Shown: one piece after another, positions 10,279 through 34,495 of the stretch
Numbering within the stretch: position 1 is the first letter of the stretch
Layout of the letters: each line of letters begins with the position of its first letter
Virus record (IMG/VR): IMGVR_UViG_3300028072_000010
Span: 1 to 43,085 of that record
Strand: one strand, 5' to 3'
Origin: a virus
Lineage: Duplodnaviria > Caudoviricetes
Length of the DNA: 43,085 bases
The notes under the pieces: generated by a model
What the model saw: only the letters and a program-made list of their open reading frames with translations
What the model was told of the DNA's origin: nothing
Database searches by the model: none
Position numbers and translations under genes: made by a program

Positions 10279-10812
10279 ATGTATCAGGTCATCTGCGCCG
10301 ACCCGCCGTGGCGAATTCATGCGCCCGGTGATCCCCTCCGTTCTCCGCGTTCGCAAGGCCGGTATTATCAGACGATGCCGTTGTCTGAAATCAAGGCGCT
10401 CGACGCGGGATCGTTGGCGGCGAAGAATTGTGCGCTGTTCCTCTGGACCATCGACACCCATCTACCGCAGGCATTGGACGTGATCGAAGCGTGGGGATTT
10501 TCGTTCCGCACGATCGGGTTCACTTGGGTAAAGACCACGATCACTGGCAAATTCCATGTCGGGTGTGGTTGGTGGACGCGGGCGAATACCGAATTGTGTC
10601 TGTTGGCGTGTCGCGGTAAGCCCAGTCCGCAGGCCAAAGATGTGCGCCGCTTGGTTGTCAGTGAGCGACGTGAGCACAGTCGCAAGCCGGACGAGGTGTA
10701 CCAGCGCATCGAACGTTTATGCCAAGGTCCTTACGTTGAATTATTCGCCCGATGTCGGCGGCCGGGATGGGATGTTGCGTTTAGTGATCAGGCTGATCGT
10801 TTTCCAAGTTAG
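10279..10812 (+). CDS. MT-A70 family adenine methyltransferase
   Basis: YQVICADPPW, Y.TM...EI..L, LFLW, AWGF, WVK, G.W.R.NTE.CL, HSRKP, ELFAR. Confidence 0.9.
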   Translation: MYQVICADPPWRIHAPGDPLRSPRSQGRYYQTMPLSEIKALDAGSLAAKNCALFLWTIDTHLPQALDVIEAWGFSFRTIGFTWVKTTITGKFHVGCGWWTRANTELCLLACRGKPSPQAKDVRRLVVSERREHSRKPDEVYQRIERLCQGPYVELFARCRRPGWDVAFSDQADRFPS

Positions 10813-10944
10813 CTGCTAAATAGCCCCACGGCGATCCCGATGGTTTACCGGATACCTTAACAACCGAGGCGCACCCTCTGCGCTCCCACCAATGCGTTGT
10901 GGAAAACTGAGGACAAACCTCAACTCTTTCACAAGGTGCATAAA

Positions 10945-12168: not shown

Positions 12169-12231
12169 GATTAATCTTTACGCCTGAATGGCACTCTGTT
12201 ATACTTCGACTTTCAGTTGGAGAATAACAGA

Positions 12232-12894
12232 GTGCCTTCTTTTATAGACCTCACCGGACAGCAGTTTAATCGCTGGTTCACCATCGAACGGGCAGCAGAT
12301 CAAGGCAAACAAACCGCCTATTTGTGCCGGTGTTCGTGTGGAACACTGCGGGTCGTCGCCGCAAACAACCTCAAAACTGGTAAGTCGGAGAGTTGTGGAT
12401 GTCTTGCCGCTGAGCGAGCGGCGGAAGCCCACACTACACATGGAATGTCACGTCATCCAGCCTATGCCAGTTGGTGCAAGATGATCTCTCGCTGTGAGAA
12501 TGTGAATGACCAAAAATATCACATCTATGGGAAACGAGGTATCAAAGTCTGTCGACGTTGGCGCGAGTGTTTCGAGAATTTCTGGGAAGATATGGGCGCC
12601 ACGTGGCAAAAGGGTCTGACGCTCGATCGCATCGATCCGAATGGCGACTATGAACCGAGCAATTGTCGATGGGCAACAGCAAAAGTTCAAGGTAACAATA
12701 AATGCTATCATCGGATCGTGGACACTATCCACGGGCCAATGAATGTATCACAGGCAGCCGAACTGTCGGGTTTGGACCCGGAGACTATCAGGTCTCGCGA
12801 CGATGCCAAATGGCCTAAAGAAGACCTGCTCTCGCCGCCGATGGAAGCTGCTACGCGTGAACGCGATTCCACCGGCCGCTTCGTCTGCAAATAG
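12232..12894 (+). CDS. HNH-like homing endonuclease
   Basis: DLTG..F, C.C.CG, SCGC, W..M..RC, YG.RGI.VC.RW, TLDRID.NG.YEP.NCRWAT. GTG start after GGAG. Confidence 0.85.
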   Translation: MPSFIDLTGQQFNRWFTIERAADQGKQTAYLCRCSCGTLRVVAANNLKTGKSESCGCLAAERAAEAHTTHGMSRHPAYASWCKMISRCENVNDQKYHIYGKRGIKVCRRWRECFENFWEDMGATWQKGLTLDRIDPNGDYEPSNCRWATAKVQGNNKCYHRIVDTIHGPMNVSQAAELSGLDPETIRSRDDAKWPKEDLLSPPMEAATRERDSTGRFVCK

Positions 12895-12950
12895 TCTTGA
12901 CTTGATCCGGCAAATCGTTCATCTAATCCGCGTTCAGTGAAAGGGAATAC

Positions 12951-13274
12951 ATGAACTCTCGTCAGGTAGACAATGCAGTAAAGCTTGCGGCATTCATCAC
13001 TAATGCCGTCAAGCGCCCGCCGATCGGTCCGGCGACCAACAAGGCTCCCGAATTGGAAAAGGAACGCGCCTATGTTTGGTTTGAAGAGAACGATGACGGC
13101 GAGTCAAAGATTGCCGCGATCATCCGACTGGATGATGAGGCGACCACCGTTGACGTGAACTTTGATGTTGGAAACAATCCGGCGTATCTGACTATTCCGA
13201 CTTTCTGTCTGTTGGAAAATATCATGTGTGTGATCATCTATAATGGTGAACGTCAGTTGGTCACATCTAAATAA
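12951..13274 (+). CDS. hypothetical protein
   Basis: 107 aa ORF with AAGGGA SD. Confidence 0.55.
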   Translation: MNSRQVDNAVKLAAFITNAVKRPPIGPATNKAPELEKERAYVWFEENDDGESKIAAIIRLDDEATTVDVNFDVGNNPAYLTIPTFCLLENIMCVIIYNGERQLVTSK

Positions 13275-13279
13275 ACCTC

Positions 13280-13456
13280 ATGTCCACTTGTGTCTCCGAC
13301 ATCCAATATGACCAAGAGACACGCACTCTCACCGTGGCGTTCGTGAAAGGTGGCACATTCTCTTATCAGGATGTGCCACCTCACGTCGTCAAAGCCTTTA
13401 AGGCCGCCGGCTCACTCGGCCAATTCTTCAACGCCAACATCAAACATAATTATTAG
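13280..13456 (+). CDS. KTSC domain protein (not in ORF track)
   Basis: Manual translation MSTCVSDIQYDQETRTLTVAFVKGGTFSYQDVPPHVVKAFKAAGSLGQFFNANIKHNY*. TAAATA lies 6 nt upstream. Confidence 0.85.
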   Translation: MSTCVSDIQYDQETRTLTVAFVKGGTFSYQDVPPHVVKAFKAAGSLGQFFNANIKHNY

Positions 13457-13500
13457 GTCGCGTCCCTGATCGTAAATACAGCCATCAGAAAGGCGATTCG

Positions 13501-14250
13501 ATGGCTGGACAAATTACGACACCGGTGGACCTCATACACCTCTGCCTCAAGACCGCCGGAGTGGTCGGCGTGGGTCAGACACCCGATTTCGAGGATACCA
13601 ACGACTGCTTCAGCATCCTGAACAGCTTCCTCGGACAAATCACCCGCGAACGCTTTCTCGTCTATCATCTGGTCGATGTCGCCTTTCTCTCGAATGGCGC
13701 CATTTCCTACACCATCGGCGCAGGCGGCGACTTTAATGTCCCACGGCCCGATCGACTGGAAGCGGCATACGCCCGCCTGCTCCCCGTCTCGACCCAGCCA
13801 TTTGATTATCCCCTCACCTTGATCGATAGTCGCGAGGATTACTCGGCGATCACCCTCAAACATCTTACTACGTTTCCCAACAGCGTGTTTTACGATAGCG
13901 ACTGGCCGTTGGGTCATGTGTTTGTCTGGCCGGTGCCGCAGAATGAGCAATTCGAGGTGCATCTGGTGATCAAGGAAACCTTGACGCAATTCCCCACTCT
14001 CACCACACCGATCAATTTGCCGCCCGAGTACCTCGACATGCTGATCTGGAATTTGAGCGTCAGGATACGGCCGCTCTATCAGATGCCGCCCGATCCGACG
14101 ATCATCGCTCTTGCCAAGAACTCGCTCGCGGTGATCCGTCAATCCAATACGCAAATTCCGCAACTGCGGATGCCGTCATCCGTGATGAATGCGTCGAGCG
14201 GGCACGATCCGACATTAGGGAATCTGCAAGGATTGCCTTGGGCCTTTTAA
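13501..14250 (+). CDS. head-to-tail adaptor (P22 gp4-like)
   Basis: DLI..L...GV.G.GQTP, LN, YTIG.GGDF, LPPEY...L.WNL..R; lies before the gp10-like gene. Confidence 0.8.
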   Translation: MAGQITTPVDLIHLCLKTAGVVGVGQTPDFEDTNDCFSILNSFLGQITRERFLVYHLVDVAFLSNGAISYTIGAGGDFNVPRPDRLEAAYARLLPVSTQPFDYPLTLIDSREDYSAITLKHLTTFPNSVFYDSDWPLGHVFVWPVPQNEQFEVHLVIKETLTQFPTLTTPINLPPEYLDMLIWNLSVRIRPLYQMPPDPTIIALAKNSLAVIRQSNTQIPQLRMPSSVMNASSGHDPTLGNLQGLPWAF

Positions 14251-14262
14251 GGAATAGCCGAA

Positions 14263-17200
14263 TTGCCATTCATGCAGCTACAAGGCGGAGCCTATCAGTC
14301 CCGGTCATTGATCGCCGCCGCTCAGCGGTGTCTCAACCTCTACACTGAAGCCACCCCGCAATCGACCAGCGAGCCGTTCTCGGCGACCCACTATTGCACC
14401 CCCGGTCTCACGTTCGTGGGCGACGCTCAACAGGAACGTTGCAGAGGTCTCTACACGACCTTTGATGGCACGCTCTACGCCGTCTATAATCAAAAGGTCT
14501 ATCGGATCGACGACCAGCATCAATTCCATCTGCTGGGCACGTTTCAACCCTCGGCGCCGTCCGACGCTACCGCACGTGATACTCCGGTGTCGATGTGCGA
14601 TAATGGCCAAGTACTCCTCATCGCTGACGGATCAGTAGACGGCTGGTTTGTCGATCTCAGTCAGCCAGCCGCCAGCCAGACGCTCACGCGGATCGACCGC
14701 AATCTGAATCAGGGCTGGCAAGGCTCGGACTTCGTCACCTATCAGGACACGTTCTTCATCATGAACGCGCCGGGCACGGCGCAGTTCTACATCAGTCTCT
14801 CCAATATCAGTGCGCAGAACTTGTCTGCTGCGTTCGGGGTCTTCACCGCGACCATCAGCGCCGCCGGATCGGGCTATCAGGCGAATGACACCCTCACTCT
14901 CACCGGTACTGGTGGAGGTCAGATTACCGTCAATACGGTCGATACCAGTGGCGTGATCACCGGCTATGGTGTCACTAATAGCGGGGCTCTCTCCACTCAG
15001 CCGGCCAATCCTGTTCCAGTGACCGGTGGCAGTGGCACGGGCGCTACGTTCAACCTCACCTATACCGACAATATCGGCGCATTTGACGGACTGGACTTTG
15101 CCGCGATGGCCGCCCAAGCCAACAAGCTGGTCTGTGCGGTATCCGTCGCCCGTAATCTCTGGCTTATAGGTTCTAATTCTTTCGAGATTTGGCAGAATAC
15201 TGGCGGTGACGGGACTATTGCTGGGAGTTTTCCATTTTCCGTCTACGCCGAGGCGTATGGGAACTGGGGAGCGGCGGCGAAATACTCGGTCGCCAATATC
15301 GTCAATCAGGTCTATTGGCTGAGCCAAGACAAATTCGGCCACGGCATCATCATGCGAGGTGAATCCCTCGGCAGCAAGCGAATATCCACTCACGCCATCG
15401 AGTTCCAAATCTCGCAATATGATCGGATCGACGACGCGATCGGCATGCGGTATCAGCAACAGGGACATATCTTTTATCTGCTGACCTTCCCATCGGCCAA
15501 TGCCAGCCGGGGGGCGACGTGGGTGTATGATATCACCACCGGCGAATGGGCGGAACGGGCGTATATCGACAATAATGGACTGGAATATCGTCATCTCGCC
15601 AATGCGATGAGCATGGCGTATGGCGAGGTGTTTGTCGGCGATTGGCGCAATGGTTACCTTTATACCTTCGATCTCGACAACTACACGGACAATGCACAGC
15701 CGATAAAAAGATTGCGGAGTTTTCCGCATCAGATCGACCTCGAAGCCAGTCGAAGGATCATGTACAACCAACTGATCGCCCAGATGCAGGTCGGATCGGC
15801 CGCCCAGTCTGGCACGGGCACCAATGTGGTGGATGTCGGCTTTGATGCCGCCAATGGTACCTTGCTGGAAAACTACCACAATTTGAACTCGTTCGGCTCG
15901 ACCTTCACCAAATTGGGCGTGGTCGAGGGACAGATTATCGACGATGCGGTAGTCGCCGCATCGGCTGGCAACATGCTGTATTCCGTCAGTGGCACGCCGA
16001 CCTTGCCTGACTACACCGTCACCTATCAGATGCAGCCGACGAATTATGGCACGATTCCCGATGCCGGTGCGTCGATGTTCGTGATCGCCCGTGCCAATTC
16101 CTCAAATAATGGCTACATGGCGGCGATCCTCTCCGATGGCAGCCAGTATCTCGCCCGGCTGACCGTCATGGGCGGCATCTCGACCTTCGTGTCCCTAGGG
16201 ACCATTGCCACTGGCGTGTATGCGGTGACGTTGACCTTGCATGCCAGCAGCATCACCATGGCGGTGCAGCGCACCAGTGACGGCTATTGGGTAGATCGAC
16301 TGGGCAATTGGACACAGCCACCCGCCACGGCGATCCAGATAACCGACAATACCTATCAGACCGCCGGACAAATTCTACTGGGTGGCACGGCCGGCATTCC
16401 GACCGCTCTGCCCAGCATTTCTGGTGTGGCGATTGGTGCATCTCTCGGATCGATGACCACGGCGATCACTGGCCCGCCGGTGAATCTCGAATTGACCGGC
16501 ATCGAGACACCTCTGTCGGTCGGGTCGATCGTCGCTGCTCTTTCGAGTTCTCCGTCGATTGGAATCTTCGGCGTCGCCGGCAATGCCAACACCGGTCTCC
16601 CGTCGTTGTCGATCAGCGGAGCACCTTCATTCACGCCGGGCGGTGTTGCATCGTCGGTCGGCGTGGGATCGGTGGGACTCAGTATCAGTGGCTCGCCGTC
16701 GATCAGCGTCACCGGCGTCGCAATGACCACGGCGATCAGTGCTCCATCGGTTACCACCTCGCATACCGTCTCTGTCACTGGCGTGGGGATTACCGCCAGT
16801 CGCGGAATTCCAACAGTGTCGCTATCTCGTTCGGCATCGATCACCGGCGTCGGAATTACCGCCAGTCGCGGAACTCCATCGGTTGGCCAATCGCGGTCGC
16901 CATCTCTCACGGGGGTTGGGATCACGGCCAGTCGTGGGACGATAGGCACGACCGTGTCGATCGGACCGCCAGCACAAGCCAGTGCGGCGGGCTTTACGAA
17001 TTTGGTGTTCAACGACGACTTTATCACCACCTCGACCATCGCCACGACGCAGAACGCGACGACGGGTTTCAACTGGTACTGGGCACAGAGATTGGGCAGT
17101 GCGGTCGATCCGACGGTTGAGTGTCATGTTGGTACTGGACTGACGGCGGCGACGGTGTTCAACGGCAACACCGGAGGTGGAGCGAACGCGTCAGCGGCGG

Positions 17201-17808
17201 GCGGTATTCTCCAGATCAACACTGGAACTTTCCCGAACGCCAACATCATCTCGCTGCCGGGCTGGGCGATGAATTCGGGCCTGACGACCTTGCCGCCAAC
17301 AGGCACAGGTCACTGGGGTCACTGCTATATGGAAGCGTACATCCAGTTCGTTCCCAATCAGAATGCGAGTTTGCCATTTAATCCGACGAATTTCACGTCG
17401 ATTGGATGGCCGGCATTCTGGTCATGGGCGGCCGAGGGGCTGGCCGATTATGGATTCCCCGGCAGTGGCTTGACGTTGACCAATCCGACCGAGGTCGATT
17501 TCCTCGAAAGCTTTGGGAATGTGACCTTTGGAGGTCCAGCGACTCCCTCGACCATCGACGCGGGAATTATTCATCATGATACCGATGGATCGAATGCCTT
17601 GGGGCATGGCAGTATCGACTCCAATTGGCACACCTATGGCTTCCTATGGACCAGCAATCATGTGCGGATTTACTTTGACAATGCGCCGATGACGGCGGCA
17701 TTGGCACTGAGTCCGACCTATGCGTTGGACGCGCAGACGTTGTTTATCACGCTTGGTACTGGTCCATCGTGGCAAATGAACGTCGATTGGGTAAGGGTCT
17801 GGCAGTGA
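14263..17808 (+). CDS. tail hub gp10-like N-terminal part fused to a ConA-like domain, a repeat stalk and a GH16-like domain
   Basis: GGAYQSRS..AAQRC.NLY, TPGL, RISTHAIE, YQQ.GH.FY.LTFP.A..TWVYD..T.EW.ER, VGDWRNG, R.RSFPH up to ~15810. The canonical gp10 C-terminus is absent. GH16 motifs WPAFW, EVDFLE, WHTYG, VDWVRVWQ. Confidence 0.85.
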   Translation: MPFMQLQGGAYQSRSLIAAAQRCLNLYTEATPQSTSEPFSATHYCTPGLTFVGDAQQERCRGLYTTFDGTLYAVYNQKVYRIDDQHQFHLLGTFQPSAPSDATARDTPVSMCDNGQVLLIADGSVDGWFVDLSQPAASQTLTRIDRNLNQGWQGSDFVTYQDTFFIMNAPGTAQFYISLSNISAQNLSAAFGVFTATISAAGSGYQANDTLTLTGTGGGQITVNTVDTSGVITGYGVTNSGALSTQPANPVPVTGGSGTGATFNLTYTDNIGAFDGLDFAAMAAQANKLVCAVSVARNLWLIGSNSFEIWQNTGGDGTIAGSFPFSVYAEAYGNWGAAAKYSVANIVNQVYWLSQDKFGHGIIMRGESLGSKRISTHAIEFQISQYDRIDDAIGMRYQQQGHIFYLLTFPSANASRGATWVYDITTGEWAERAYIDNNGLEYRHLANAMSMAYGEVFVGDWRNGYLYTFDLDNYTDNAQPIKRLRSFPHQIDLEASRRIMYNQLIAQMQVGSAAQSGTGTNVVDVGFDAANGTLLENYHNLNSFGSTFTKLGVVEGQIIDDAVVAASAGNMLYSVSGTPTLPDYTVTYQMQPTNYGTIPDAGASMFVIARANSSNNGYMAAILSDGSQYLARLTVMGGISTFVSLGTIATGVYAVTLTLHASSITMAVQRTSDGYWVDRLGNWTQPPATAIQITDNTYQTAGQILLGGTAGIPTALPSISGVAIGASLGSMTTAITGPPVNLELTGIETPLSVGSIVAALSSSPSIGIFGVAGNANTGLPSLSISGAPSFTPGGVASSVGVGSVGLSISGSPSISVTGVAMTTAISAPSVTTSHTVSVTGVGITASRGIPTVSLSRSASITGVGITASRGTPSVGQSRSPSLTGVGITASRGTIGTTVSIGPPAQASAAGFTNLVFNDDFITTSTIATTQNATTGFNWYWAQRLGSAVDPTVECHVGTGLTAATVFNGNTGGGANASAAGGILQINTGTFPNANIISLPGWAMNSGLTTLPPTGTGHWGHCYMEAYIQFVPNQNASLPFNPTNFTSIGWPAFWSWAAEGLADYGFPGSGLTLTNPTEVDFLESFGNVTFGGPATPSTIDAGIIHHDTDGSNALGHGSIDSNWHTYGFLWTSNHVRIYFDNAPMTAALALSPTYALDAQTLFITLGTGPSWQMNVDWVRVWQ
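16775..16940 (+). repeat. three 66-nt-period coding repeats (TGVGITASRG)
   Basis: TCACNGGSGTNGGRATYACSGCCAGTCGYGGRA at 16775, 16841 and 16907. Confidence 0.85.
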
Positions 17809-19985
17809 GTTACGATGTCACTCTAGTCCAAGTCAATGCCAATATTGGCGGCATGGGTGTCGCCAACTCGAACATGGGATTCCCTACCATACCGTTTGAC
17901 ACTCTGCTGTTCAGCATGTGGACCTGTCTGCCGTCAGTGCCGCTGCATACGAGCAATGGTGGACCTGCGTATATCCGATTTTTTCAATTAGATAGTGGAA
18001 CCCATGGACATCTACAACTTGGTAATATGTCCACCGCCACGTTCTTCTTCGATGGCACGTTCGATACGCCGGTCAATGACCTGCGATCCCATCATTTGGT
18101 CTCGGTCGATTGTGCGAGTCAGACGGTGCAGTACTATCTCAATGATCAGCCGGTGTCCATCATATCCGGCGGCTGGACTGGAAGCGGACATTTTCAAGCT
18201 TCATCGAACGCCAATATCTGGGATTTTGATATTGGTAGTGGTTTCGGATTCACCTATCCAGCATTCGCTGATTTATGGTTAGCGAAGACATCTAGTTTTG
18301 TCGATCTTTCCATATCAGCGAATCGCCGCAAGTTCATCAACAGTGATTTAACACCGGTTGATCTCGGCGCGGATGGCTCTCTACCACTTGGCAGCGTGCC
18401 ACAGATATTCCAGACGATATTGCCCGGCGGCGTGCCGAATGATTTTCTGATCAATCGCGGTCTTGGCATAGATTTCGGTTTGACGAGTGACAGCACACTT
18501 AGCTTTCAAGAAGCTGGCAAATGTAGTTTGCCGCCTTGTGTAGTCGTAGACACCGGTCTGATCTGGCCGATCACCGGCGGTGTTTCACAACTCGGGCTAT
18601 TGGCTTACAATCATCCGACACGAGCATATTCAGTTTCTGGAGATGGGTCGATATTGGCTGGCACTGCTGATGGTTTTGACTCTGGCGGGCATCCGGCCAG
18701 ATGGGACGGTGGTACAGCAGCATTGACAGGATTGACTCCAGACGAAGGGGTTGATTCTTCTATCGCCGGTCTGGTTATGTCTCAAGATGGCAGCATTATC
18801 TATAGCAACACCAATACATCAATCGTTCGCTGGTCGCCATCCGGTGTTGACCTATTCCCACCTTTGGATGGATTTGACGGCTGCGCCATTGGCTTTAGCT
18901 CAGGTCCCTTAAAAGGCAGACAATGCTCTGATGATGGCAGCATTCTGTTTGGCTCTTCGACATTAGGTGGCAGCAATGTCACAATCACTCAATGGACCGA
19001 CGGTGTTCCGAGTGCCTTACCGTTGCCGATAGAAGCCGCTTCATCCAGTCCCAATGTATGTTCGCAAGATGGTTCAGTCGTTGTTGGTCAGGCCGAGTCC
19101 GAAGCATCCTTCTGGACCGGTGGAGAATATTTCAGACTCAATCCATACATCGGAGTGTCAAGTAATACAATCACCGCTATGGCCTGCAATAGCGATGCGA
19201 GCATCATCTACGGCAATACCGCATTTCATGTTCCGGTCTATTGGGATAATCTCGGCCATTCGATCATCGACCCTACTCTTGGCACGATTTGGGGCGACAT
19301 CCATGTCATGGATGAATTGCCCGGCACTACGCATTTCCGCGACACACGTGTCGAATACTCTGCTGATAGCGGCAACATCGCCGTGGGCTGGGGGTCGAAC
19401 AGCAGTAGCGTTGACACAGCGATTCGCTGGACAGGAACCACTGCCGAAGCATTAGAGACACCATTGGATTGGACTGGTGCCAGAGCACATGCTTGCAGCG
19501 GCGACGGCTCGATAGTAGTGGGCGAGGTCACCGATCCTGAATTCCGGACATGGGCGTGCTATTGGGATATCGACGGCGCGATCCATATCCTACCCGGAAT
19601 TGCCGATCCGGATGATACCTCACAAGGCATCGCTATGGGAATCAGTCGCGATGGGACGCTGATCTTCGGTGATGGCGATAATACCTGTACTATACCACCA
19701 CCGCCAGTTCCCGTTAGCGACCTCTCCATCACTGAGCTATCGGTCTCCACCGAGGTCCTGATCCTGCCAGATCACGACATCACCCTCAAATGGTCAGATG
19801 ACGCTGGTGCGTCATGGTCGAATGGCATCATCAAATCCGTCGGCGCCCACGGCGAATACCTCACCTCGCCGACTTTTTATAGATTGGGAATGGCTAGATC
19901 ACGAATCTTCGAGATCAGTTGGGCCGGACCTCAAGCCGAAGCGATGACCGGCGTGTTCGTGGGCTACAAACTCGCCGCGTCATAG
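17805..19985 (+). CDS. virion protein: LamG-like + beta-propeller repeats + gp10-like C-terminal module
   Basis: GTGA coupling to the upstream stop. Repeated (C)S.DGS...G / A.RW motifs. Ends ITLKWSDDAGASWSN...G..GEYLT..FYRLGMARSRIFEISW. Confidence 0.75.
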   Translation: MSYDVTLVQVNANIGGMGVANSNMGFPTIPFDTLLFSMWTCLPSVPLHTSNGGPAYIRFFQLDSGTHGHLQLGNMSTATFFFDGTFDTPVNDLRSHHLVSVDCASQTVQYYLNDQPVSIISGGWTGSGHFQASSNANIWDFDIGSGFGFTYPAFADLWLAKTSSFVDLSISANRRKFINSDLTPVDLGADGSLPLGSVPQIFQTILPGGVPNDFLINRGLGIDFGLTSDSTLSFQEAGKCSLPPCVVVDTGLIWPITGGVSQLGLLAYNHPTRAYSVSGDGSILAGTADGFDSGGHPARWDGGTAALTGLTPDEGVDSSIAGLVMSQDGSIIYSNTNTSIVRWSPSGVDLFPPLDGFDGCAIGFSSGPLKGRQCSDDGSILFGSSTLGGSNVTITQWTDGVPSALPLPIEAASSSPNVCSQDGSVVVGQAESEASFWTGGEYFRLNPYIGVSSNTITAMACNSDASIIYGNTAFHVPVYWDNLGHSIIDPTLGTIWGDIHVMDELPGTTHFRDTRVEYSADSGNIAVGWGSNSSSVDTAIRWTGTTAEALETPLDWTGARAHACSGDGSIVVGEVTDPEFRTWACYWDIDGAIHILPGIADPDDTSQGIAMGISRDGTLIFGDGDNTCTIPPPPVPVSDLSITELSVSTEVLILPDHDITLKWSDDAGASWSNGIIKSVGAHGEYLTSPTFYRLGMARSRIFEISWAGPQAEAMTGVFVGYKLAAS

Positions 19986-20002
19986 GCCGTGTAAATAGCC
20001 GC

Positions 20003-20452
20003 ATGACAATCGCACTCGCCACTGATAACGGCAATCATCCGCCCGCAAGTTGGGCACAGGCCACCGCGCAAACCATCATCGACCTCGGCAATGTCCCCGC
20101 CCAACGACAGGCCGCTGGACAAGAACTGCAAGCCAATATCGCCTATGCGCTGACCGGCTACTATTCAGCCGTGCTCGACCGCGAGAAGGATCATCTCGCC
20201 CTCTACCATGACCATTGCGACTCACCCTACGATGTCTCGAAATTCGTCAAGATGGCGGTGATCGAGATCACTGACCTCGCTCGCGACACGCCATGGGAAA
20301 CCCTGATCCTCAGCGAGCCGTGGCAGCAAACGGTGTATAGCACGATCGGCGACCATCTGGCCTCGGCGATCCACGTCGAGCGATTGCTGTATGGTGACGC
20401 TCATCCGGACAATTCATCAGCGATGGCCTATCGTCATCGGTTTCATAGATGA
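20003..20452 (+). CDS. hypothetical protein (tail region)
   Basis: Start refined to ATG 20003, 5 nt after TAAATA (19992-19997). Confidence 0.65.
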   Translation: MTIALATDNGNHPPASWAQATAQTIIDLGNVPAQRQAAGQELQANIAYALTGYYSAVLDREKDHLALYHDHCDSPYDVSKFVKMAVIEITDLARDTPWETLILSEPWQQTVYSTIGDHLASAIHVERLLYGDAHPDNSSAMAYRHRFHR

Positions 20453-20989
20453 TTAAAGAAGCGATGGATGAATGAACTCACCGTGCCTAGCTTGGGCTAT
20501 GCGTCGGTAGATTTCGGCCGCTTCCTCCGGCGTGTCGAAGTATCCTCTTTTAACTCTTCTACCTTCGATTACAATTTGAGCGAACCATTTTTGGTGGTCG
20601 TGTGACCAAGACACTCCGATATATCCAGATGTGTTATTCCGTCGCTTGCCTATGTTATGTCGTTGCTGACTGCGATTTGCCAAGCGAAGATTCTCCCACC
20701 GATTGTCGGCGTATTTTCCGTTTTTATGATCAATCTCTTCCGGTGGGGAATTGCCGGTCATCATGTACCAGATGATGCGGTGCGCGTAGTATTGCACACT
20801 ATCCAAATGTACTGTGCGATGGCCGAGTATATTAATTGATCCTGCTATCTTACCCGCGTGTTTCGCGTTCCACCGATTTGTCTCTCGATCACAACCTTGT
20901 TTGGCTTTCCAGCGCAGTTCTCCAGACGCGGGATCATAATCGAAACGCTGATATAAATACCCGAGATCAGGCAATGTAATAAACTGCAT
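20453..20989 (-). CDS. HNH-AP2 homing endonuclease
   Basis: YDPASG.L.W, AHRIIW, IDHKNG...DNR.ENLR, AP2 tail; paralog of 8096..8680. Confidence 0.9.
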   Translation of the reverse strand: MQFITLPDLGYLYQRFDYDPASGELRWKAKQGCDRETNRWNAKHAGKIAGSINILGHRTVHLDSVQYYAHRIIWYMMTGNSPPEEIDHKNGKYADNRWENLRLANRSQQRHNIGKRRNNTSGYIGVSWSHDHQKWFAQIVIEGRRVKRGYFDTPEEAAEIYRRIAQARHGEFIHPSLL

Positions 20990-21046
20990 ACTCGCAGCAT
21001 AGCAAAGTCCAATTCTGCTTTCAATTTCCCGATATAGGAATCCATC

Positions 21047-21727
21047 ATGGGGTCAATCTCAACCGCGTATTGCACCAGCGCCAAGGCTGAACACCTCTAT
21101 GGTGCACACAATTTCGGCGCCACGGTGACGCCGACCGGCAACACCACTTCCGGCGCCTTCACCGTCACATCGATGTCGAGCAATACCGGCGTGTGTGTCG
21201 GTATGGCGATTACCGGTGCGGGTATCCCCGGATCGACCGTGGTCGCCAGCATCGATTCAGCGACGCAAATTACATTGTCGAAGGCAGCGACTGCCACAGC
21301 CACCGGCGTATCGCTCAGCATTACGGGCGACGTGTTTAAGATCGCGCTCGTGAAAGCAGCCCCGACGGGCACCTATGGCGCGGCGACGGTGAATTACTCC
21401 GACATTGTATCGGACGAGGTCACGGGCACCGGCTATTCAGCGACGGGTGTTGCACTTACTAATGTGTCGCCAGTAACCAGCGGAACGACGGCGTACGTTA
21501 CGTATTCACCAAACCCCAGTTGGACATCGAGTACTTTTTCAACCGATGGTTGTCTCGTGTACAATACGAATGCCCGATTGGGTGGAACATCGGGCAGTAA
21601 TACCCAAGGCGCAGGTCGGGCGATGGGTGTGTTCTCATTCGGCGGAACTCAGACAGTGACGGCCGGGACTCTGACGATTCTCATGCCTTCGGCTTTGCCG
21701 GCCTCGGCCATTTTCCGTCTCGCTTGA
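21047..21727 (+). CDS. virion structural protein
   Basis: FKIAL...YS...EV.GTGY.A.G..L, W.SSTF...G.LVYN, V.SFGG motifs, with a small inserted beta-domain (VGM.ITG.GIP..T.V.SI.S.TQITLS). Confidence 0.7.
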   Translation: MGSISTAYCTSAKAEHLYGAHNFGATVTPTGNTTSGAFTVTSMSSNTGVCVGMAITGAGIPGSTVVASIDSATQITLSKAATATATGVSLSITGDVFKIALVKAAPTGTYGAATVNYSDIVSDEVTGTGYSATGVALTNVSPVTSGTTAYVTYSPNPSWTSSTFSTDGCLVYNTNARLGGTSGSNTQGAGRAMGVFSFGGTQTVTAGTLTILMPSALPASAIFRLA

Positions 21728-21746
21728 TTCATAAAGGATATCTGAC

Positions 21747-21998
21747 ATGACATTCCAATCTGGTTATCGCATGTGGTCGGGCGAGCAACTCAATGGTCAA
21801 CTCGCTGGCCCCACTGGTCCAACGGGTCCTACAGGATCAGCGGGTGCCACTGGGGCGGCAGGGGCGGGTGCTTCATCCAGTGCACCAGCGACCGCGTCCT
21901 CGACTGGCACAGCCGGCACGGTGGCGTATGACGCGACGCATATCTATGTCTGCATCGCGACCAATACCTGGGTGCGTGCAACACTAGCGACTTGGTAA
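21747..21998 (+). CDS. mini collagen-like fibre protein
   Basis: GPT/GAT triplets then APATASSTGTAG..AYD...IYVC.ATNTW.R; AAGGA SD. Confidence 0.7.
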   Translation: MTFQSGYRMWSGEQLNGQLAGPTGPTGPTGSAGATGAAGAGASSSAPATASSTGTAGTVAYDATHIYVCIATNTWVRATLATW

Positions 21999-21999
21999 G

Positions 22000-22185
22000 A
22001 TGCCCTTCCCGCTCCCAGAGGTTATCAAAATGTGGCATGGCCGGGAGATCAATGAGGCGATCTCCGACGCCATGAAACAATTGATGGAAGAAATGCTGAA
22101 TCAATTCGGCAATATCACCCAAGGCCCCACCGGGCCAACGGGTCCCCGAGGGCCTATGGGAGCGACCGGCCCCACAGGTCCGTGA
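22000..22185 (+). CDS. mini collagen-like protein
   Basis: 61 aa ending in (GPx)n; starts 1 nt after the upstream stop. Confidence 0.6.
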   Translation: MPFPLPEVIKMWHGREINEAISDAMKQLMEEMLNQFGNITQGPTGPTGPRGPMGATGPTGP

Positions 22186-22361
22186 CCAATAATCGATTAA
22201 TTCGCGAGTATTGTCTGCGAGTTCTGCGGATGGCGTCGAAGAAAGATGTGGAGGTCATCATCGGACAGGTGCTCGCCCAGTTGATCCATGAACAGCGATT
22301 GAAGGGATTATCCGGGGCGATCAACGAAATGATCAACGCGATCAACCATTACAACCGGTAA
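22182..22361 (+). CDS. small hypothetical protein (not in ORF track)
   Basis: GTGA coupling; 59 aa helical ORF (MTNNRLIREYCLRVLRMASKKDVEVIIG...) ending just before a terminator. Confidence 0.5.
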   Translation: MTNNRLIREYCLRVLRMASKKDVEVIIGQVLAQLIHEQRLKGLSGAINEMINAINHYNR

Positions 22362-22371
22362 ATCCTTAAAT

Positions 22372-22396
22372 AACCCTCGAAGATCGGGGGTTTTTT
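22372..22396 (+). terminator. intrinsic terminator
   Basis: AACCCTCGA-AGA-TCGGGGGTT stem running into a T tract. Confidence 0.6.
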
Positions 22397-22408
22397 ATGT
22401 GCGCTGTC

Positions 22409-23053
22409 TTATCTGCATCGTTCACATCGCTTGGCGCGATTTCCACCACGGAATTGAACGCCACAGGACATGCAGACGTGGATAAATCCTTTTTTGTCAT
22501 ATGTCGGGAATCCACGTTCAAGTCCGTGCAAGCGATGATGCTCAGTTTGTGGCAGGACCATAAGATTATCCAGCGCGTAATTCCATCTATCGCCGTCAAC
22601 ATGATGCACATGTTGGTCGGGGGCAAGTCGATATCCAAGATGTTCTTCCATCAAGTAGCGGTGGATCAAGGCTGTTCTTCCCGGAGCTATCGGCGTCATC
22701 ATGGGATAGCATTTTCGATTTCGTCGCCTTTTGATATTGCGTCGCACAGGAATATCAAGCTTTCGCAGATGCTCGATCACGGCTGCCGAATTGCATCCGA
22801 CTGTACGCGCGATTTCGTGCGACGTATGTACCGAATAGGCAGCTTCAAGCCATTCACGATCGTTCAACTTTTCCGATACGCGCGGCCGACCCGTCGGTCG
22901 AGTATCGATACCGTGGCGATGCAAAGCGTGAGTCACCCCAGTTGGCGAGCATTTAAGCCGTTCAGCAATCTGTCGAACCGTCTGAGTAGCATATGCTGCT
23001 CTCAGCCAATCCCCATTGTGCAGTTCTTTAATGTGTTTGGGCATAGTGGTCAT
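22409..23053 (-). CDS. HNH endonuclease with tandem N-terminal HTH repeats
   Basis: Two WL.AAY....IA..(L/V).C HTH units; HRYLME.HLG..L...HVHHVDGDR.N..LDNL..L...EH..LH; C-terminal CxxC..CxxC. Confidence 0.85.
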   Translation of the reverse strand: MTTMPKHIKELHNGDWLRAAYATQTVRQIAERLKCSPTGVTHALHRHGIDTRPTGRPRVSEKLNDREWLEAAYSVHTSHEIARTVGCNSAAVIEHLRKLDIPVRRNIKRRRNRKCYPMMTPIAPGRTALIHRYLMEEHLGYRLAPDQHVHHVDGDRWNYALDNLMVLPQTEHHRLHGLERGFPTYDKKGFIHVCMSCGVQFRGGNRAKRCERCR

Positions 23054-23083
23054 TATACCCTATTGGCGCAAAGGAGTCAGTAA

Positions 23084-24583
23084 ATGTCAACGCTTCTCGC
23101 TGAATCATTCGACCAGTACGCAGCAGCCGGCGGAGCGGCTGATATGGTCTCGGTCGGCTGGACTATTGGTAGTCTTACCATAACAAATTCCCCGAATACA
23201 CCGTTCAGTCAGGGACAAATTGCCAGCATTTTCAGCACCGGTGTCTCAAGCTACAACTGGGGAAGCAATGAGACGACGGTATACGGTTCGTTTTTCTATC
23301 TCAATCGAAGTGCCAGCAGTAGCACGAACTATGTCTATTTCTCATTCACCGATGCTGGAACTGCACAATGCACAATTCGACTGAATATGGATGGAAGTGT
23401 TGGACTTTATACTGGTGGTCCAACTGGAACTTTAATCAGTACCACTAGCTCAGTCTTTACTGGGGGTATTGTGACCACCCCTTGGACGAGTTTCCAATTC
23501 AAGATTGTCATTAATAACACCACGGGGTCGATAGAGATACGGCAGAACGGTGGACCGTCGAATATCATCACTCAGACCAGCGTGAATACCAGAGGCGGGA
23601 CATCCAATTCCTATATCAATGGAATATCAATAGCTACGACTGGCGTAACAGGTACTGGAGTTATTGACAATCTATTCTTGAACAACACATCAGGCAACGC
23701 GCCGACCAGTTGGCCGGGTGAGATGCGGGCATTGCAACAGACGCCGACAACGGTAGTGACGCCTAATTTCTCGGTGTCTCCTACGACAATATCGCAAACA
23801 ACACCGACGAACAGTCTAGGTATCACTGAAAGCGCCAACACAACTTATTATGCGCCGTTCATCGCAACAGATACTGGCACTGTTGGATCGCTGACGTTTG
23901 TAATGAATGCCAATCTGACTGGCAATTGCAAATTCGCCATCTATGATAATACTGGACCATCAGGAGCGCCGGGGACATCTCTGGCAACATCTAGTGCGGT
24001 AAACAATCCGACCACCACTGGACCAAACGTTGCGACTTTTTCAAGTCCTCCTAGTTTAGTGAAAGGTGCCAGCTATTACGTTGCATCGGTGCAGGATGCC
24101 TCAGCAAATTACAGAGGTGCAGCAAGCACATTAGCCTACACAAGCTCCACCTCGTACGCCAGTTTCCCAGTGAACAGTCCAACCTTTGCCAGTGGTCCTG
24201 TTAGCATCAATACGGTCGCGGCGACGCTAGTCAACACAATCAACAGTGCCGGTGCGGTCTATCAACTGACTGAAGATCAAGACACTACTTACATCTATAC
24301 GTCGTCGAATGTCGAGGACAAATACAATATGTCGGCTGCGGTCGCCTCGACCTATCAGGTCGTCTGCGTCCAATATTATGCCATGTGGAAGAAGGCCGAT
24401 GTTGGCACTCGCACTGCTGCACTATCGGTCACAGCAAATGGCAGCAGCGATACCAATCTGACATCAGTCACGCCGACCTTGGTATATGCCTATTCGATCA
24501 AAACCCTAGAACTCGATCCGACCGGTGCGACATGGACGCCGACCAATGTCAATGGTGCGGTCGTAGGGATCACGGCGTCGTAA
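23084..24583 (+). CDS. S/T/G-rich virion structural protein
   Basis: 499 aa, beta-rich; L..ESFD start, DPTGA.WT...VN end; AAGGAG SD. Confidence 0.7.
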   Translation: MSTLLAESFDQYAAAGGAADMVSVGWTIGSLTITNSPNTPFSQGQIASIFSTGVSSYNWGSNETTVYGSFFYLNRSASSSTNYVYFSFTDAGTAQCTIRLNMDGSVGLYTGGPTGTLISTTSSVFTGGIVTTPWTSFQFKIVINNTTGSIEIRQNGGPSNIITQTSVNTRGGTSNSYINGISIATTGVTGTGVIDNLFLNNTSGNAPTSWPGEMRALQQTPTTVVTPNFSVSPTTISQTTPTNSLGITESANTTYYAPFIATDTGTVGSLTFVMNANLTGNCKFAIYDNTGPSGAPGTSLATSSAVNNPTTTGPNVATFSSPPSLVKGASYYVASVQDASANYRGAASTLAYTSSTSYASFPVNSPTFASGPVSINTVAATLVNTINSAGAVYQLTEDQDTTYIYTSSNVEDKYNMSAAVASTYQVVCVQYYAMWKKADVGTRTAALSVTANGSSDTNLTSVTPTLVYAYSIKTLELDPTGATWTPTNVNGAVVGITAS

Positions 24584-26368
24584 ATGGCCTTTACTGTCTG
24601 GGATACCGTCCAAAAATCAGCCGGCCTAACGCTAAGCGGTGGTAATCTCACCGCCACTGGCAATATTTCTCTTAACGGCGTTCGTGCTGCCGATACACAG
24701 ACCTCGGGAAAATTCTACTTCGAGATTACGACTGGCGCGACCTATGGAACCAGTCAGAACAGCATAGGCATCTGCAATGGCAACGTATCTTCGTCGAACA
24801 TTGCCAACTCTATGGGCAGTACCCTTCTGAATGTTGCAATCACTGCTAAGGGCAGTGGTAACATCTTTGTCAATAACGTCAATTCCGGTTTGACGATTGG
24901 CGCAATTGCAATCAACACAGTCGTCTGCGTAGCCGTTGATTTGTCGGCCAAACTGATTTGGTTTCGCAAAGGTGCAGCAGGAAGCTGGAATGCAACCTCT
25001 GGAAGCACAAACGATCCAGCAACTGGCGTTGGCGGTGCATCTATCGCATCTATTGCTCCTGCTTACCAGAACTTCTATCCGGCAATTGGGCTTGCAAGCT
25101 CAGGTGACACAGTAACAGCCAATTTCGGTGCTACTGGTTTCACTGGTAGTGTGCCATCAGGCTATACGTCGGGGTGGACAACTGGCGTAACTGCACTCTC
25201 TGATGTCATAGCTACACAGATCGGTGCATCAGCATGGGTCACTAATACTCATGCGCCATTCAATGTCACGCAAATCGGTGCCTCGATCTGGATTGCAAAT
25301 CAAGTTGTCGCCGCCTATCCTCTCGGCGTTTCTGGTACTGGAGGCGCCGGTACAGTCACCACTCAGATCATAATTCCAGGATTAGATGTTCCAATCACTG
25401 GCGTTGCAGGTACTGGCGCTGCTGGTAGTCCAACAATCAGCATCTCTGCCAATCCAGCTATAACCGGCGTAGAAACTGATAGCGCGGTCGGAACCCCGAG
25501 CATCAGTCTTGGGGGCAGTGTCGCCATCAGCGGCGTCGAATCCACTGGCATTGCAGGATCGGTCATCGCCGAAGCCGATATTTCACTCATTGGCGTCGAG
25601 TCCGTCGGCCAAGTCGGAACGCCGACGATCTCAGCGACCGCCAACACCGCGCTCACCGGCGTGCCAATCACCACTGGCATCGGCGGTTTCACTTTCCAGA
25701 TCGACGCTGATCAGCCGATCACCGGCGTCCAATCATCCGGCCTAGCTGGATCACCCGTCCCCTCGATCGCCCCCATGATCGACGGCGTCGAACTCACCGC
25801 GAGTGTCGGTGATCCAACGGTCGAAATCACCTTCCTCAACGGCGTGGAAATCGTCTGCGGGATCGGACCGGTCACCCCGAGTATCGACGCCGTACGTCTC
25901 ACCGGTGTGCAGATAGCGGCCTCGATTGGCCATCCGCTGGCGCAGGTCGTCATCCCCAATCGCACCTTGGTCCAGATCAATACCGGAGTCCAAGCGACCG
26001 CGACCATCGGACATCCGATCCCGCGTATCAGCATTGGAATTGAAGGGGTCGAATCCACCGCCCAAGTCGGACAACTAACCACACTCAACTACTCAGGCGT
26101 CATGGCGATCACCGATCTCATGGTGATCCAAGACCAGTCGATCGACGAGGATACCATGTTGACACTCCGCTGGTCCGATACCGAAGGCCAGTCGTGGAAT
26201 ATGCCGGTCGATCGCCAGATGGGCAAGACCGGCGAATATCTTACCAATATCCAATGGCAGAGATTGGGGATGTCTCGGCGAGGTCGGGTGTTCGAGTTGT
26301 CGTGGAGTACTCCTAATCCGACCTGTCTGATCGGCGCCAGTCTCAAGATGACGGACGCTTCGACATGA
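24584..26368 (+). CDS. virion protein: SPRY-like + TGV repeat stalk + gp10-like C-terminal module
   Basis: LSGGNLTA, SGKFYFE, AVDL..KLIWF.K, ANFG..F...PSGY (SPRY-like); about ten (I/L)xGV..T...G repeats. Ends LRWSDTEGQSW...MGK.GEYLT..W.RLGMSR.GRVFELSW. Confidence 0.8.
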   Translation: MAFTVWDTVQKSAGLTLSGGNLTATGNISLNGVRAADTQTSGKFYFEITTGATYGTSQNSIGICNGNVSSSNIANSMGSTLLNVAITAKGSGNIFVNNVNSGLTIGAIAINTVVCVAVDLSAKLIWFRKGAAGSWNATSGSTNDPATGVGGASIASIAPAYQNFYPAIGLASSGDTVTANFGATGFTGSVPSGYTSGWTTGVTALSDVIATQIGASAWVTNTHAPFNVTQIGASIWIANQVVAAYPLGVSGTGGAGTVTTQIIIPGLDVPITGVAGTGAAGSPTISISANPAITGVETDSAVGTPSISLGGSVAISGVESTGIAGSVIAEADISLIGVESVGQVGTPTISATANTALTGVPITTGIGGFTFQIDADQPITGVQSSGLAGSPVPSIAPMIDGVELTASVGDPTVEITFLNGVEIVCGIGPVTPSIDAVRLTGVQIAASIGHPLAQVVIPNRTLVQINTGVQATATIGHPIPRISIGIEGVESTAQVGQLTTLNYSGVMAITDLMVIQDQSIDEDTMLTLRWSDTEGQSWNMPVDRQMGKTGEYLTNIQWQRLGMSRRGRVFELSWSTPNPTCLIGASLKMTDAST

Positions 26369-27105
26369 CCAATCCCATCTCGCAAATTCCTAATGCCCCC
26401 CTGCCGCCGATCAGCCAACAGATTGTCTCGGCCGATGGCCTCGCCACCTCGCAATTCTATCGCTTCCTGCTCGGTCTCTGGACCCGAACTGGCGGGGCTT
26501 TGGGGGTGAACACGTCCGACACCGTGCAGGTCGCCACCCAAGCGCTCCAGACGGCGAACACGGCGTCTCAGCAATCGCAGACCACGGCGGCGGGGTTGGC
26601 CGTGGTGCAACTCGAAATCGCCACCCTAAGCAACGAATTGGCGACCGTGTCCAACACCGCGAGTTCAGCGTCCACCACCGCCAACAACAATCAGTCACTC
26701 ATGTTGTTGAAGGTCGCCAACCTCAACGACGTGGGGTCGAAGGCCGCTGCCCGGCTGAACCTCGGAGTCGGCACCTATCCCGCCGTCTATAGCTTTGATA
26801 CCTTGCCAGTGGGACTTCGTCGTGGCATACCGCTGATCTTCCCCGTGGCGACCAGTGCCAATCTGGCGGGCACACAGGTGTGGTGGGATGCCGCTCCGAC
26901 TAGCGATGCGGTATTCCATGTGTCGTCGAAGAACTTGGGGGCGATTGGCACGATCACCATCGCCGCTGCGGGGACTGGTGTGGTATTCTCGTTACAGGCG
27001 GCGGTGGCGATGACGGTGGGGGACACGCTGATTGTCACGTGTCCTTCACCGGTCGATGGATCGTTGAGTAGGGTGGGGATCACGATCCCCTTGACGCTGT
27101 TATAG
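26365..27105 (+). CDS. tail needle-like protein (P22 gp26 position)
   Basis: N-terminal FYRFL..LW.RTGG, heptad coiled coil, NL.DV...AAR.NLG, C-terminal knob; ATGA-coupled to the gp10-C-bearing gene. Confidence 0.65.
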   Translation: MTNPISQIPNAPLPPISQQIVSADGLATSQFYRFLLGLWTRTGGALGVNTSDTVQVATQALQTANTASQQSQTTAAGLAVVQLEIATLSNELATVSNTASSASTTANNNQSLMLLKVANLNDVGSKAAARLNLGVGTYPAVYSFDTLPVGLRRGIPLIFPVATSANLAGTQVWWDAAPTSDAVFHVSSKNLGAIGTITIAAAGTGVVFSLQAAVAMTVGDTLIVTCPSPVDGSLSRVGITIPLTLL

Positions 27106-27239
27106 CCGTTATCGGCTTTAGGAGGCACGTCGTGCCCTTTTTTCGTCGTAGCCGGTGATCCGGCTGAGAATCTGCGCTATGCCCTATTTTCGTCGAGTCG
27201 GATATCCGACTGGTGAGGCGTGACGGGTCAATCGTGTTG

Positions 27240-27389
27240 TTATCGCAGCCCTTCGGCTTGGCGTATCTCTTGTATACGCTCGATCAGGCGAACGGCCATC
27301 ACTCGCAGTTCGTCCTCGGACATGTCATCTGTATAATCCCGTAGCACGTCCATGATTTCTTCGATCTTGCGTTGCAACAGCGTTATCAC
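27240..27389 (-). CDS. small hypothetical protein (not in ORF track)
   Basis: AAAGGAGA SD, GTG start, 49 aa helical MITLLQRKIEEIMDVLRDYTDDMSEDELRVMAVRLIERIQEIRQAEGLR*. Confidence 0.55.
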   Translation of the reverse strand: MITLLQRKIEEIMDVLRDYTDDMSEDELRVMAVRLIERIQEIRQAEGLR

Positions 27390-27446
27390 GTTATGTCTCC
27401 TTTCCACGTGAAACCTATCGGCAAGAATCGTCCGTGTAAATATCCC

Positions 27447-28499
27447 ATGCCGCCTTTTATCATCTATGCCTTACCTCGATCTCGAACTTATTGGTTGTCG
27501 CGTTACCTCACCTATGGCGAATGGCAGTGCGGCCACGACGAACTGCGGCATTGTCGGTCGATGGACGATGTCACCTCATGGCTCGCCCAGCCATGCACCG
27601 GATCGGTGGAGACCGCTGCCGCACCCTTCTGGCGACTGGTCAAGGACGTGAAGACCGTCACCATCCGGCGTCCAATCGATGAGGTGGTCGAAAGTTTTCT
27701 GCGATTGGGCTTTCCCGTCGATCGCGAGGTGTTCCGCCGCTATATGCTGCAATTCGACCGCAAACTCGACCAGATCGAACAGCGGGTGCCGAATGTGTTG
27801 TCCGTCACCTTCGATGATCTTCGTTACGAAGAAACATGCAAAAAAGTTTTTGAATTCTGTCTGCCATACCCACATGACCCTTCGTGGTGGAATCTGATGG
27901 CGCCGCTTAATCTACAAATTAATATGCACCATCTCGTTCGATATTACGCGGCGCATGAAACCCAACTCACGAAGCTGGCGAAGATCGCTAAACATCAGAC
28001 GATCGCCCAAATGAATCGCGATCTGGTCGCCGTGGATCAGGATGACGGCCTGACCATCCAAGAGGAAAGTTTATCCAGTGCTGTGGAGGCCAAGGCGCTG
28101 TTCGCCGAGCATTGTGTGCTGGTCGGTGAATCGCCCGATTCGTATGACACGAAGAACTGGCCGCTGATGCACAAATTGGAGGAATTGGGCGCCATTCAGG
28201 TGATGACCGCTCGGTGCAATGGCCGATTGTTTGGCTATTTGATGGCGTTGATCAGTCCGTCATTGGAATCCCCCGATATCCAGACGGCGATTCATACCAC
28301 GTTTTTCGCCTCGCCGGAGTTCAAGGGCTTGGGGATGAAGCTGCAACGGGCGTCGGTGGAGGCGTTGCGGGCGAAGGGGATCGACGAGGTGTATTTTCAT
28401 GCTGGGCCACGTGGCATGGGACCTCGGATGGGCACGGTGTATCGGCGATTGGGCGCGGTGGAGTTCGGCAATTTATGGAAACTTGAGTTAGAGCCATAA
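27447..28499 (+). CDS. P-loop/sulfotransferase-like domain fused to GNAT acetyltransferase
   Basis: Start refined to ATG 27447, 4 nt after TAAATA. LPRSRT.WLS..L and IRRP..EV..S motifs; C-terminal FFASPEFKGLGMKL...YRRLG GNAT motif. Confidence 0.7.
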   Translation: MPPFIIYALPRSRTYWLSRYLTYGEWQCGHDELRHCRSMDDVTSWLAQPCTGSVETAAAPFWRLVKDVKTVTIRRPIDEVVESFLRLGFPVDREVFRRYMLQFDRKLDQIEQRVPNVLSVTFDDLRYEETCKKVFEFCLPYPHDPSWWNLMAPLNLQINMHHLVRYYAAHETQLTKLAKIAKHQTIAQMNRDLVAVDQDDGLTIQEESLSSAVEAKALFAEHCVLVGESPDSYDTKNWPLMHKLEELGAIQVMTARCNGRLFGYLMALISPSLESPDIQTAIHTTFFASPEFKGLGMKLQRASVEALRAKGIDEVYFHAGPRGMGPRMGTVYRRLGAVEFGNLWKLELEP

Positions 28500-28526
28500 A
28501 TACCTGACAATCTAAGGTACAATATT

Positions 28527-34485: not shown

Positions 34486-34495
34486 TCCTCGTCGC

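Follow-up and report, generated by a model that had tools for sequence, protein, structure and literature searches.

Nozzle parts in the window

The window, the whole stretch of 43,085 nucleotides (nt) analyzed here, comprises positions 1-43,085 of the IMG/VR virus record IMGVR_UViG_3300028072_000010, and the listed runs that match it are soil metagenomes, with no RNA run among them. By profile search its structural genes are P22-like (terminase, portal, scaffold, capsid, adaptor, hub, and ejection protein), and the hub, or nozzle, gene (open reading frame A [ORF-A]) is positioned between the adaptor gene and the needle and ejection genes (needle by position only; ejection gene at 28527, PHROG_598). 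ORF-A carries the N-terminal part of a nozzle of the P22 gp10/Pam1 type, and two other genes, ORF-B and ORF-C, end in a C-terminal module that intact relatives keep in the same chain as the N-terminal part (Table 1).

ORF-A matches PHROG_578 (head closure Hc3, 486 positions) to position 401, which corresponds to residue 513 in the motif QVG (about window position 15800), and this is where the first-pass annotation had the gp10-like similarity end. Later positions of the same family are found in ORF-B, whose residues 644 to 722 match positions 391 to 470 (E value of 5.5e-5), and in ORF-C, whose residues 508 to 590 match positions 388 to 470 (E value of 1.8e-10). A profile of the N-terminal part (N-part) matches the 7EEQ and 9VYG chains, and a profile of the module matches 9VYG and the C-terminal ~70 residues of 7EEQ, the Pam1 nozzle (369 to 435 of 442; E value of 5e-9). 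Both window copies are included in a module alignment of 35 sequences, and each keeps all 8 of its invariant columns. A six-frame search of the whole window returned one N-part and exactly two modules, with no second N-part (socket) gene; a second socket gene elsewhere in the genome is rejected on this result. The platform domain, with its N- and C-terminal halves, is not on a single chain, its C-half being located on ORF-B and ORF-C.

Alignment with intact gp10 homologues confirms that the module is the C-terminal part that these relatives keep in one chain. The two copies described earlier are thus present, with the correction that the missing piece measures ~90 amino acids (aa) rather than ~70, a strand motif further upstream (starting at 19728 and 26108) being part of it. 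The carriers had also been called otherwise unrelated, which is too strong for the system as a whole, since ORF-A and ORF-C share the same 22-aa repeats. The second module is coupled to the next gene by an ATGA overlap, as had been noted, and the designation of that gene as the needle comes from its position and from the likeness of the 26365-27105 product to the gene that follows the intact gp10 in L014; a profile search with this product returned only tail-fiber or unknown families and no needle match. L014, a prophage gp10 homologue classed as intact, has an in-frame stop inside its module (11297-11299). ORF-B most likely starts at 17805, because the GTG there overlaps the ORF-A TGA and the same GTGA overlap occurs in the relative L083, which has a full-length ORF-B orthologue (63% identical). 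The N-part of ORF-A bears a ~70-aa insert at about residues 180 to 250.

Table 1. Features of the adaptor-to-needle region of the window
Feature	Position	Strand	Basis or remark
Head-tail adaptor, P22 gp4-like	13501..14250	+	PHROG_637 (E 4e-5); PF11650 weak (E 0.059)
ORF-A (1181 aa), P22 gp10/Pam1-type nozzle gene	14263-17808	+	PHROG_578
ORF-A residues 1-513, nozzle N-part: propeller and N-terminal half of platform	14263..15801	+	PHROG_578, PF11134, 7EEQ, 9VYG
ORF-A residues ~519-707, ConA-like beta-sandwich, putatively lacking its last strand	15817..16383	+	ESM Atlas lead
ORF-A rope-like 22-aa repeats, about 8 (six caught by motif scan)	16410..16950	+	66-nt spacing; repeat families D2 and D3
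ORF-A C-terminal GH16/LamG-like domain, ending in VDWVRVWQ and the stop	16990..17808	+	PF00722 (E 3.5e-4), below curated cut-off
ORF-B (726 aa): LamG-like N-domain, beta-propeller-like repeats, C-terminal module 1	17805..19985	+	domains by eye
Module 1: strand motif ITELSV and platform C-half (LKWSD...RLG...RIFEISW)	19728..19985	+	
Conserved ORF of ~150 aa, no known family	20004..20452	+	follows module 1 in G001 too
HNH/AP2 endonuclease, mobile	20453..20989	-	absent from run X3 and X5 contigs
226-aa PHROG_644 protein, predicted rope-binding fiber subunit	21047..21727	+	AlphaFold2 model, gp80-like core plus ~70-aa insert
Two short collagen-like tail ORFs	21747..22185	+	
HNH endonuclease	22409..23053	-	
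Putative fiber head (499 aa), PHROG_2448	23084..24583	+	G001 orthologue in same place
ORF-C (594 aa): SPRY-like domain, about 11 rope-like ~22-aa repeats, C-terminal module 2	24584..26368	+	
Module 2: strand motif ITDLMV and platform C-half (LRWSD...RLGMSRRGRVFELSW)	26108..26368	+	
Putative tail needle, ATGA-coupled to ORF-C	26365..27105	+	identity inferred from position; G001 orthologue in same place

The SPRY-like domain of ORF-C was recognized through PF00622 (E value of 1.2e-3, below the cut-off). The structural region contains three HNH endonuclease genes (20447-21035, 22409-23053, and 12217-12894), and two DNA methyltransferase genes are located among the packaging and head genes (5426-6010 and 10279-10812). 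Downstream of the ORF at 33970-34485, a degenerate repeat of about 10 nt (2 x 5 nt) forms an array of 11 overlapping copies (34473-34715). An imperfect inverted repeat pair of 45 nt (78%) is found 29 kb apart, at 13333-13377 and 42745-42789.

Relatives, cut site, and module types

From 2732 candidates, 91 long homologues of the nozzle protein (649 to 2067 aa) were collected, all of which are matched by PF11134. In 68 of them the module ends the same chain, and the insert at the QVG site ranges from 0 to ~920 residues, which makes this loop an insertion hotspot. It is absent from the other 23 (P0001, which is the window's own protein, to P0019, P0041, P0043, P0060, and P0066). Of the 23 module-less proteins, 14 stop no more than 5 residues from the end of a domain of ~190 aa that comes after QVG; this common end point argues against truncation at contig ends, which is possible for single proteins. 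A tree was built from 44 selected N-cores, of which 21 are split and 23 intact; in it, 17 split sequences, including those of the window, G001, and L180, form one clade (SH-aLRT of 97). Further splits (L005, L108, P0043, and P0060) are placed among intact genes, giving five changes on the tree, at least three of them forced. The independent splits of L108 (4894-5130) and L005 (7629-8231) lie right after the strand equivalent to QVG, with no ConA-like insert, and the L108 module is a stand-alone ORF of 78 aa after fiber and propeller genes. The split is rare among the loci scanned. A scan of 159 loci yielded 5 split genes (one from the window's own phage), 7 cut off, and 147 classed as intact, and 17 more loci added one split. 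None of 37 loci from named prokaryote genomes is split (33 intact, 1 cut off, and 3 without a core match), and two degenerate-pattern scans found no new split genome. L256, an intact divergent gene overlooked by the module hidden Markov model, was left out.

The nearest named ESM Atlas clusters for the ~190-aa domain are GH43_C2, PelX_N, 3keto-disac_hyd, and SO2946-like_C, a lead only; we take all four to be sandwiches of the ConA clan, and the domain is called ConA-like on that assumption. The same domain occurs in six intact homologues, in which a nested insert of 93 to 432 aa is followed by a motif such as MDDLV, ~15 to 25 residues ahead of the module. This strand motif is present in 6/6 intact homologues with the ConA-like insert and in 0/59 that lack the insert, placement having failed for a further 3; the motif was defined after the sequences had been inspected, so the 6/6 is not a blind test. 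It was also recognized by eye in all seven modules of the split clade (ITELSV, ITDLMV, IDDLFV, FDDLQI, FDDLRI, MDDLEV, and MTDLEV), and it is missing from the L005 and L108 modules, both of which come from proteins without a ConA-like domain. ConA-like folds often end in G.I.L...FDDL.V, and for this reason we infer that the motif is the last strand of the sandwich; the gene boundary would then fall in the last loop of a ConA-like domain inserted after QVG. Because the strand motif of both modules tracks the sandwich, each tag (strand motif plus module) likely docks at two sites, the ConA-like sandwich and the platform.

Two modules were found in all three clade loci with enough downstream DNA (window, G001, and L180), and the count cannot be scored in L083, L005, and L108, which end just past the first module. 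The N-part of G001 (locus L004) is 58% identical to that of the window, and G001 has both modules and the same hub-to-needle gene order. In L180, an early-branching member of the clade, the two modules flank a homologue of the 226-aa gene. Type 1 modules (window, L083, and G001) are 62 to 65% identical, type 2 modules (window, G001, and the rope proteins P0095-97) are 49 to 65% identical, and identity between the types is 33 to 49%; in both the window and G001, each tag belongs to its own conserved type. Rough Nei-Gojobori ratios of nonsynonymous to synonymous substitution (dN/dS) are 0.29 and 0.45 for module 1 (the third pair is saturated), 0.28 for module 2, and 0.085 for the N-core, indicating that both modules are constrained, less so than the N-core. 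Two side observations concern the module carriers. P0094 is an allele of ORF-C in which the SPRY domain and the repeats have diverged and the module is almost identical. A second, nested split occurs in G001 (L004, 13635-17265), where two ORFs share the LamG-like domain found undivided in the window ORF-B: one has residues 5 to 113 of B, the module-1 ORF has 156 to 219, and propeller- and glycosidase-like sequences separate the pieces.

Candidate completion of the nozzle in trans

The preferred reading, to which we assign a probability of roughly 0.62, is that the nozzle gene is split and that each of its six subunits would be completed in trans by a ~90-residue tag, taken from ORF-B or from ORF-C, so that two kinds of fiber would be anchored to the tail. 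Completion in trans, as first proposed for this hub, is itself highly probable, because the split is clade-wide, both modules are conserved, and a precedent has been solved by cryo-electron microscopy (cryo-EM) in Pseudomonas phage A1002 (see below). The further claim that either partner can serve is backed indirectly, by two maintained module types, a full tag on each carrier, and a single socket gene; use of the same socket by both tags is rather probable, and their presence together on one virion falls somewhat short of even odds. In the proposed history, a ConA-like domain would have entered the insertion-hotspot loop after QVG, more cargo would have entered the last loop of that domain, and stop/start pairs would have cut the nested cargo into separate genes. 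On docking, a tag would give one strand to the sandwich and about five strands to the platform (lamin-B1-like) domain. The platform domain binds the adaptor ring in Sf6, so a tagless subunit should fail to assemble. Given a single socket gene and two full tags, competition of the tags for the six sites of each tail would be the simplest model. A more tentative extension, with the odds against it, is a programmed hetero-assembly in which six identical sockets receive two specialized tags, possibly in a fixed 3+3 arrangement matching the trimeric needle, each tag locking twice, through a lectin strand and through half the platform, and one virion displaying rope-type chain fibers as well as propeller/lectin heads on a hub that would be unable to form in their absence.

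As for the cargo, ORF-B would present a LamG/propeller head, and the repeats of ORF-C (about 11) and ORF-A (about 8), ~22 aa apart, would be ropes, which dimers of the gp80-like protein of 226 aa would coat in the manner of A1002 and GP4. The spacing calculated from the published A1002 ranges, ~21 to 24 residues per dimer, is close to that of the window repeats. The AlphaFold2 model of the 226-aa protein has a predicted local distance difference test score of 96, and its core aligns with the GP4 fiber I chain 8JOU_a (VIA Z of 8.2; 115 of 136 residues; root mean square deviation of 3.0), which is the only positive fold link obtained from our own model; the nearest named Atlas cluster for the homologue P0181 is Gp80 (PF23140, score of 0.86), a lead. 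This rope-and-dimer reading is likely by model and analogy, and several results count against it. Other structures match the core as well or better (KP1 baseplate 9f4a_AY, Z of 12.0; Bxb1 tail-tip 9d93_Ra, Z of 8.3), PF23140 matches 0/70 members of the family alignment at an E value of 0.1, Foldseek gave no match at an E value of 0.001, and hhalign gave no link to GP4 gp80 or the KPP25 proteins. PDB sequence searches with the 226-aa protein matched no fiber protein, and a scan of viral contigs found no relative. Across 104 loci, rope and gp80-like core occur together in 3, core only in 2, rope only in 0, and neither in 99; this is not independent support, because the 3 loci are kin. The ~70-aa insert of the 226-aa protein (21120-21330) resembles the Bridgette decoration protein 8ECI (Z of 9.4) and has up to 14 copies in other proteins.

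A broken layout could in principle be an artifact, since the record comes from a soil-virus metagenome and has no terminal repeats. The window, whose probable source is run X1, was compared with 4 of 23 listed runs; these comparisons use contigs, which cannot show rare variants. Overlapping contigs of run X2, which has a different sample and study code from X1, cover 13500-16721, 16692-16854, and 16825-28500, the last spanning both modules with 118 differences. The IMG/VR contig L001, from a possibly related sample, equals window 10944-20447 at 99.99%, and the layout recurs in G001 and L180. Because a contig from another sample spans both modules, misassembly, raised as a concern in the first-pass annotation, is rejected, and a chimeric assembly or a dead broken gene is effectively refuted. 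Very improbable, too, is an intact nozzle chain formed by DNA rearrangement, splicing, or recoding that joins ORF-A to a module. HNH genes are present in the region, the ORF-A and ORF-C repeats are alike at the protein level, and an in-frame CCCTTTA in G001 could join A to a rope/GH16 ORF, but no joint from ORF-A to either module appeared in the four runs, the sole joint being 20447-21035, which skips an HNH gene. Repeat-mediated joining was rejected, as ORF-A 15780-16420 has no 9-mer in common with the DNA around the start of either module, and an ORF-A/ORF-B frameshift fusion was rejected because the one in-frame slippery heptamer (17064) lies more than 600 nt before the ORF-B open frame. 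Together with several intervening genes in G001 and L180, which are full ORFs that differ between relatives, these results make recoding unlikely.

The alternatives that accept the split differ in the roles given to the modules. It is unlikely that only module 2 completes the nozzle, as the single partner does in A1002, with module 1 having another role or being a decaying duplicate. Module 2 matches the family profile better (E value of 1.8e-10, versus 5.5e-5 for module 1) and is located where intact genes end, by the needle gene; the motifs of module 1 have diverged, with GPQAEAMTGV near its end in place of the family consensus S.P..TAL.GA. Module 1 is nevertheless kept at 62 to 65% identity over three genomes with near-saturated synonymous sites, retains all 8 invariant columns and the strand motif, and has no second socket in the six-frame search of the window. 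A division of labor, in which every subunit would take both tags, the ConA-like strand coming from one and the platform half from the other, is quite improbable: the tag consists of two separable parts with a ~15- to 25-aa linker and two module types are maintained, but both parts are conserved in both types, and loss of the part not in use would be expected of a specialized tag. What weighs against the preferred reading is that the modules evolve faster than the N-core (dN of 0.43 to 0.53 versus 0.27), which together with the divergence of module 1 from the consensus could mean a changed role, and that the L180 modules are 35 to 52% identical to either type, with L180_m2 outside type 2 in the tree, a placement that is not firm because the comparison uses 69 columns (weak) with 2 rows skipped. 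Completion in trans by either tag remains the preferred reading.

Two variations near these genes may be recorded. In G001, where the rope and GH16-like sequence fused in frame to ORF-A in the window is a separate ORF, the CCCTTTA (L004, 12166) follows the ConA-like domain and its -1 frame leads into that ORF, so that a programmed frameshift is possible there; the unshifted protein, P0009, is found on 6 contigs. In runs X2 and X3 the two short collagen-like ORFs (21788-22020) are present as a strongly diverged allele, with nearly identical neighboring genes.

If completion by either tag is true, a podophage could vary or mix its fibers with the DNA-sealing hub unchanged, and fiber attachment would become a requirement for completing the tail. 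The repeated splits at the same loop suggest that the platform domain tolerates splitting, and the ~90-aa tag and its socket are a small candidate protein-coupling pair; were hetero-assembly true, any receptor-binding domain could be attached through the tag, a natural coupling that would be swappable and covalent-free. For annotation, "truncated gp10" genes of soil phages may be functional.

Comparison with known nozzles

The window system resembles P22 gp10, Sf6 gp8, and Pam1 gp8 in its propeller homology, in the gene order adaptor-hub-needle-ejection, and in its module, which corresponds to the last ~70 residues of 7EEQ. Unlike these single-chain nozzles, it is split and has ConA-like, repeat, and GH16-like domains inserted, and no P22-type tailspike was identified in the window. 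In Sf6, sequences that extend the gp8 propeller at its N and C termini form the lamin-B1-like domain, which fits in between two adaptor subunits, and the hub monomers assemble sequentially into a hexamer on the dodecameric adaptor (PMC9728967). The N-part of ORF-A would therefore need a C-half to join the tail. The window may also resemble the GP4 chain fiber (gp80 dimers on a rope; 8JOU, PF23140), in that the modeled core of the 226-aa protein has a similar fold and repeat-rich, rope-like proteins adjoin it; no sequence-profile match of this protein to the GP4 gp80 family was found. The GP4 rope, unlike that of the window, is a separate protein outside the nozzle, as stated in the A1002 report (PMC13730344).

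The closest parallel is A1002 (Kochitakasuvirus). Cryo-EM shows the nozzle-base protein gp42 completed by the C-terminal domains of gp39, the nozzle-rope protein, through beta-strand complementation (PDB 26FB, 44NX, and 26GP), with gp39 residues 469 to 620 giving propeller strands and the platform; the gp39 rope binds 11 fiber dimers (gp40/gp41) of the GP4 gp80 fold, encoded between gp39 and gp42 (PMC13730344). As in A1002, the N- and C-parts of the nozzle are on separate, non-adjacent genes. One C-part ends a putative rope protein (ORF-C), with a candidate fiber-dimer gene nearby, and completion would likewise be by beta-strand complementation; ORF-B has no rope. Whereas A1002 has one partner and a cut within the propeller, the window has a whole propeller, a cut in the ConA-like platform insert, and two tag genes. 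Alignment with hhalign to the KPP25 counterparts of gp39 and gp42 gave probabilities below 1%, with single-sequence templates that are insensitive, and because no sequence similarity to KPP25 proteins of the same lengths was found, the split probably arose independently of that in A1002. The literature, searched outside subscription papers such as those on the GP4 and VP1 structures, contained one description of a split nozzle and none with two alternative partners. By analogy, the window system would work like the A1002 split nozzle without being a strict member of that type, given its other cut site, its two partners, and the absence of detected KPP25 similarity. A split nozzle completed in trans is already known from A1002; the new elements proposed here are the two alternative partners and the cut in a ConA-like insert. 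If true, the split nozzle solved in A1002 would have a counterpart in the widespread P22 gp10/Pam1 family, with a choice of partner added.

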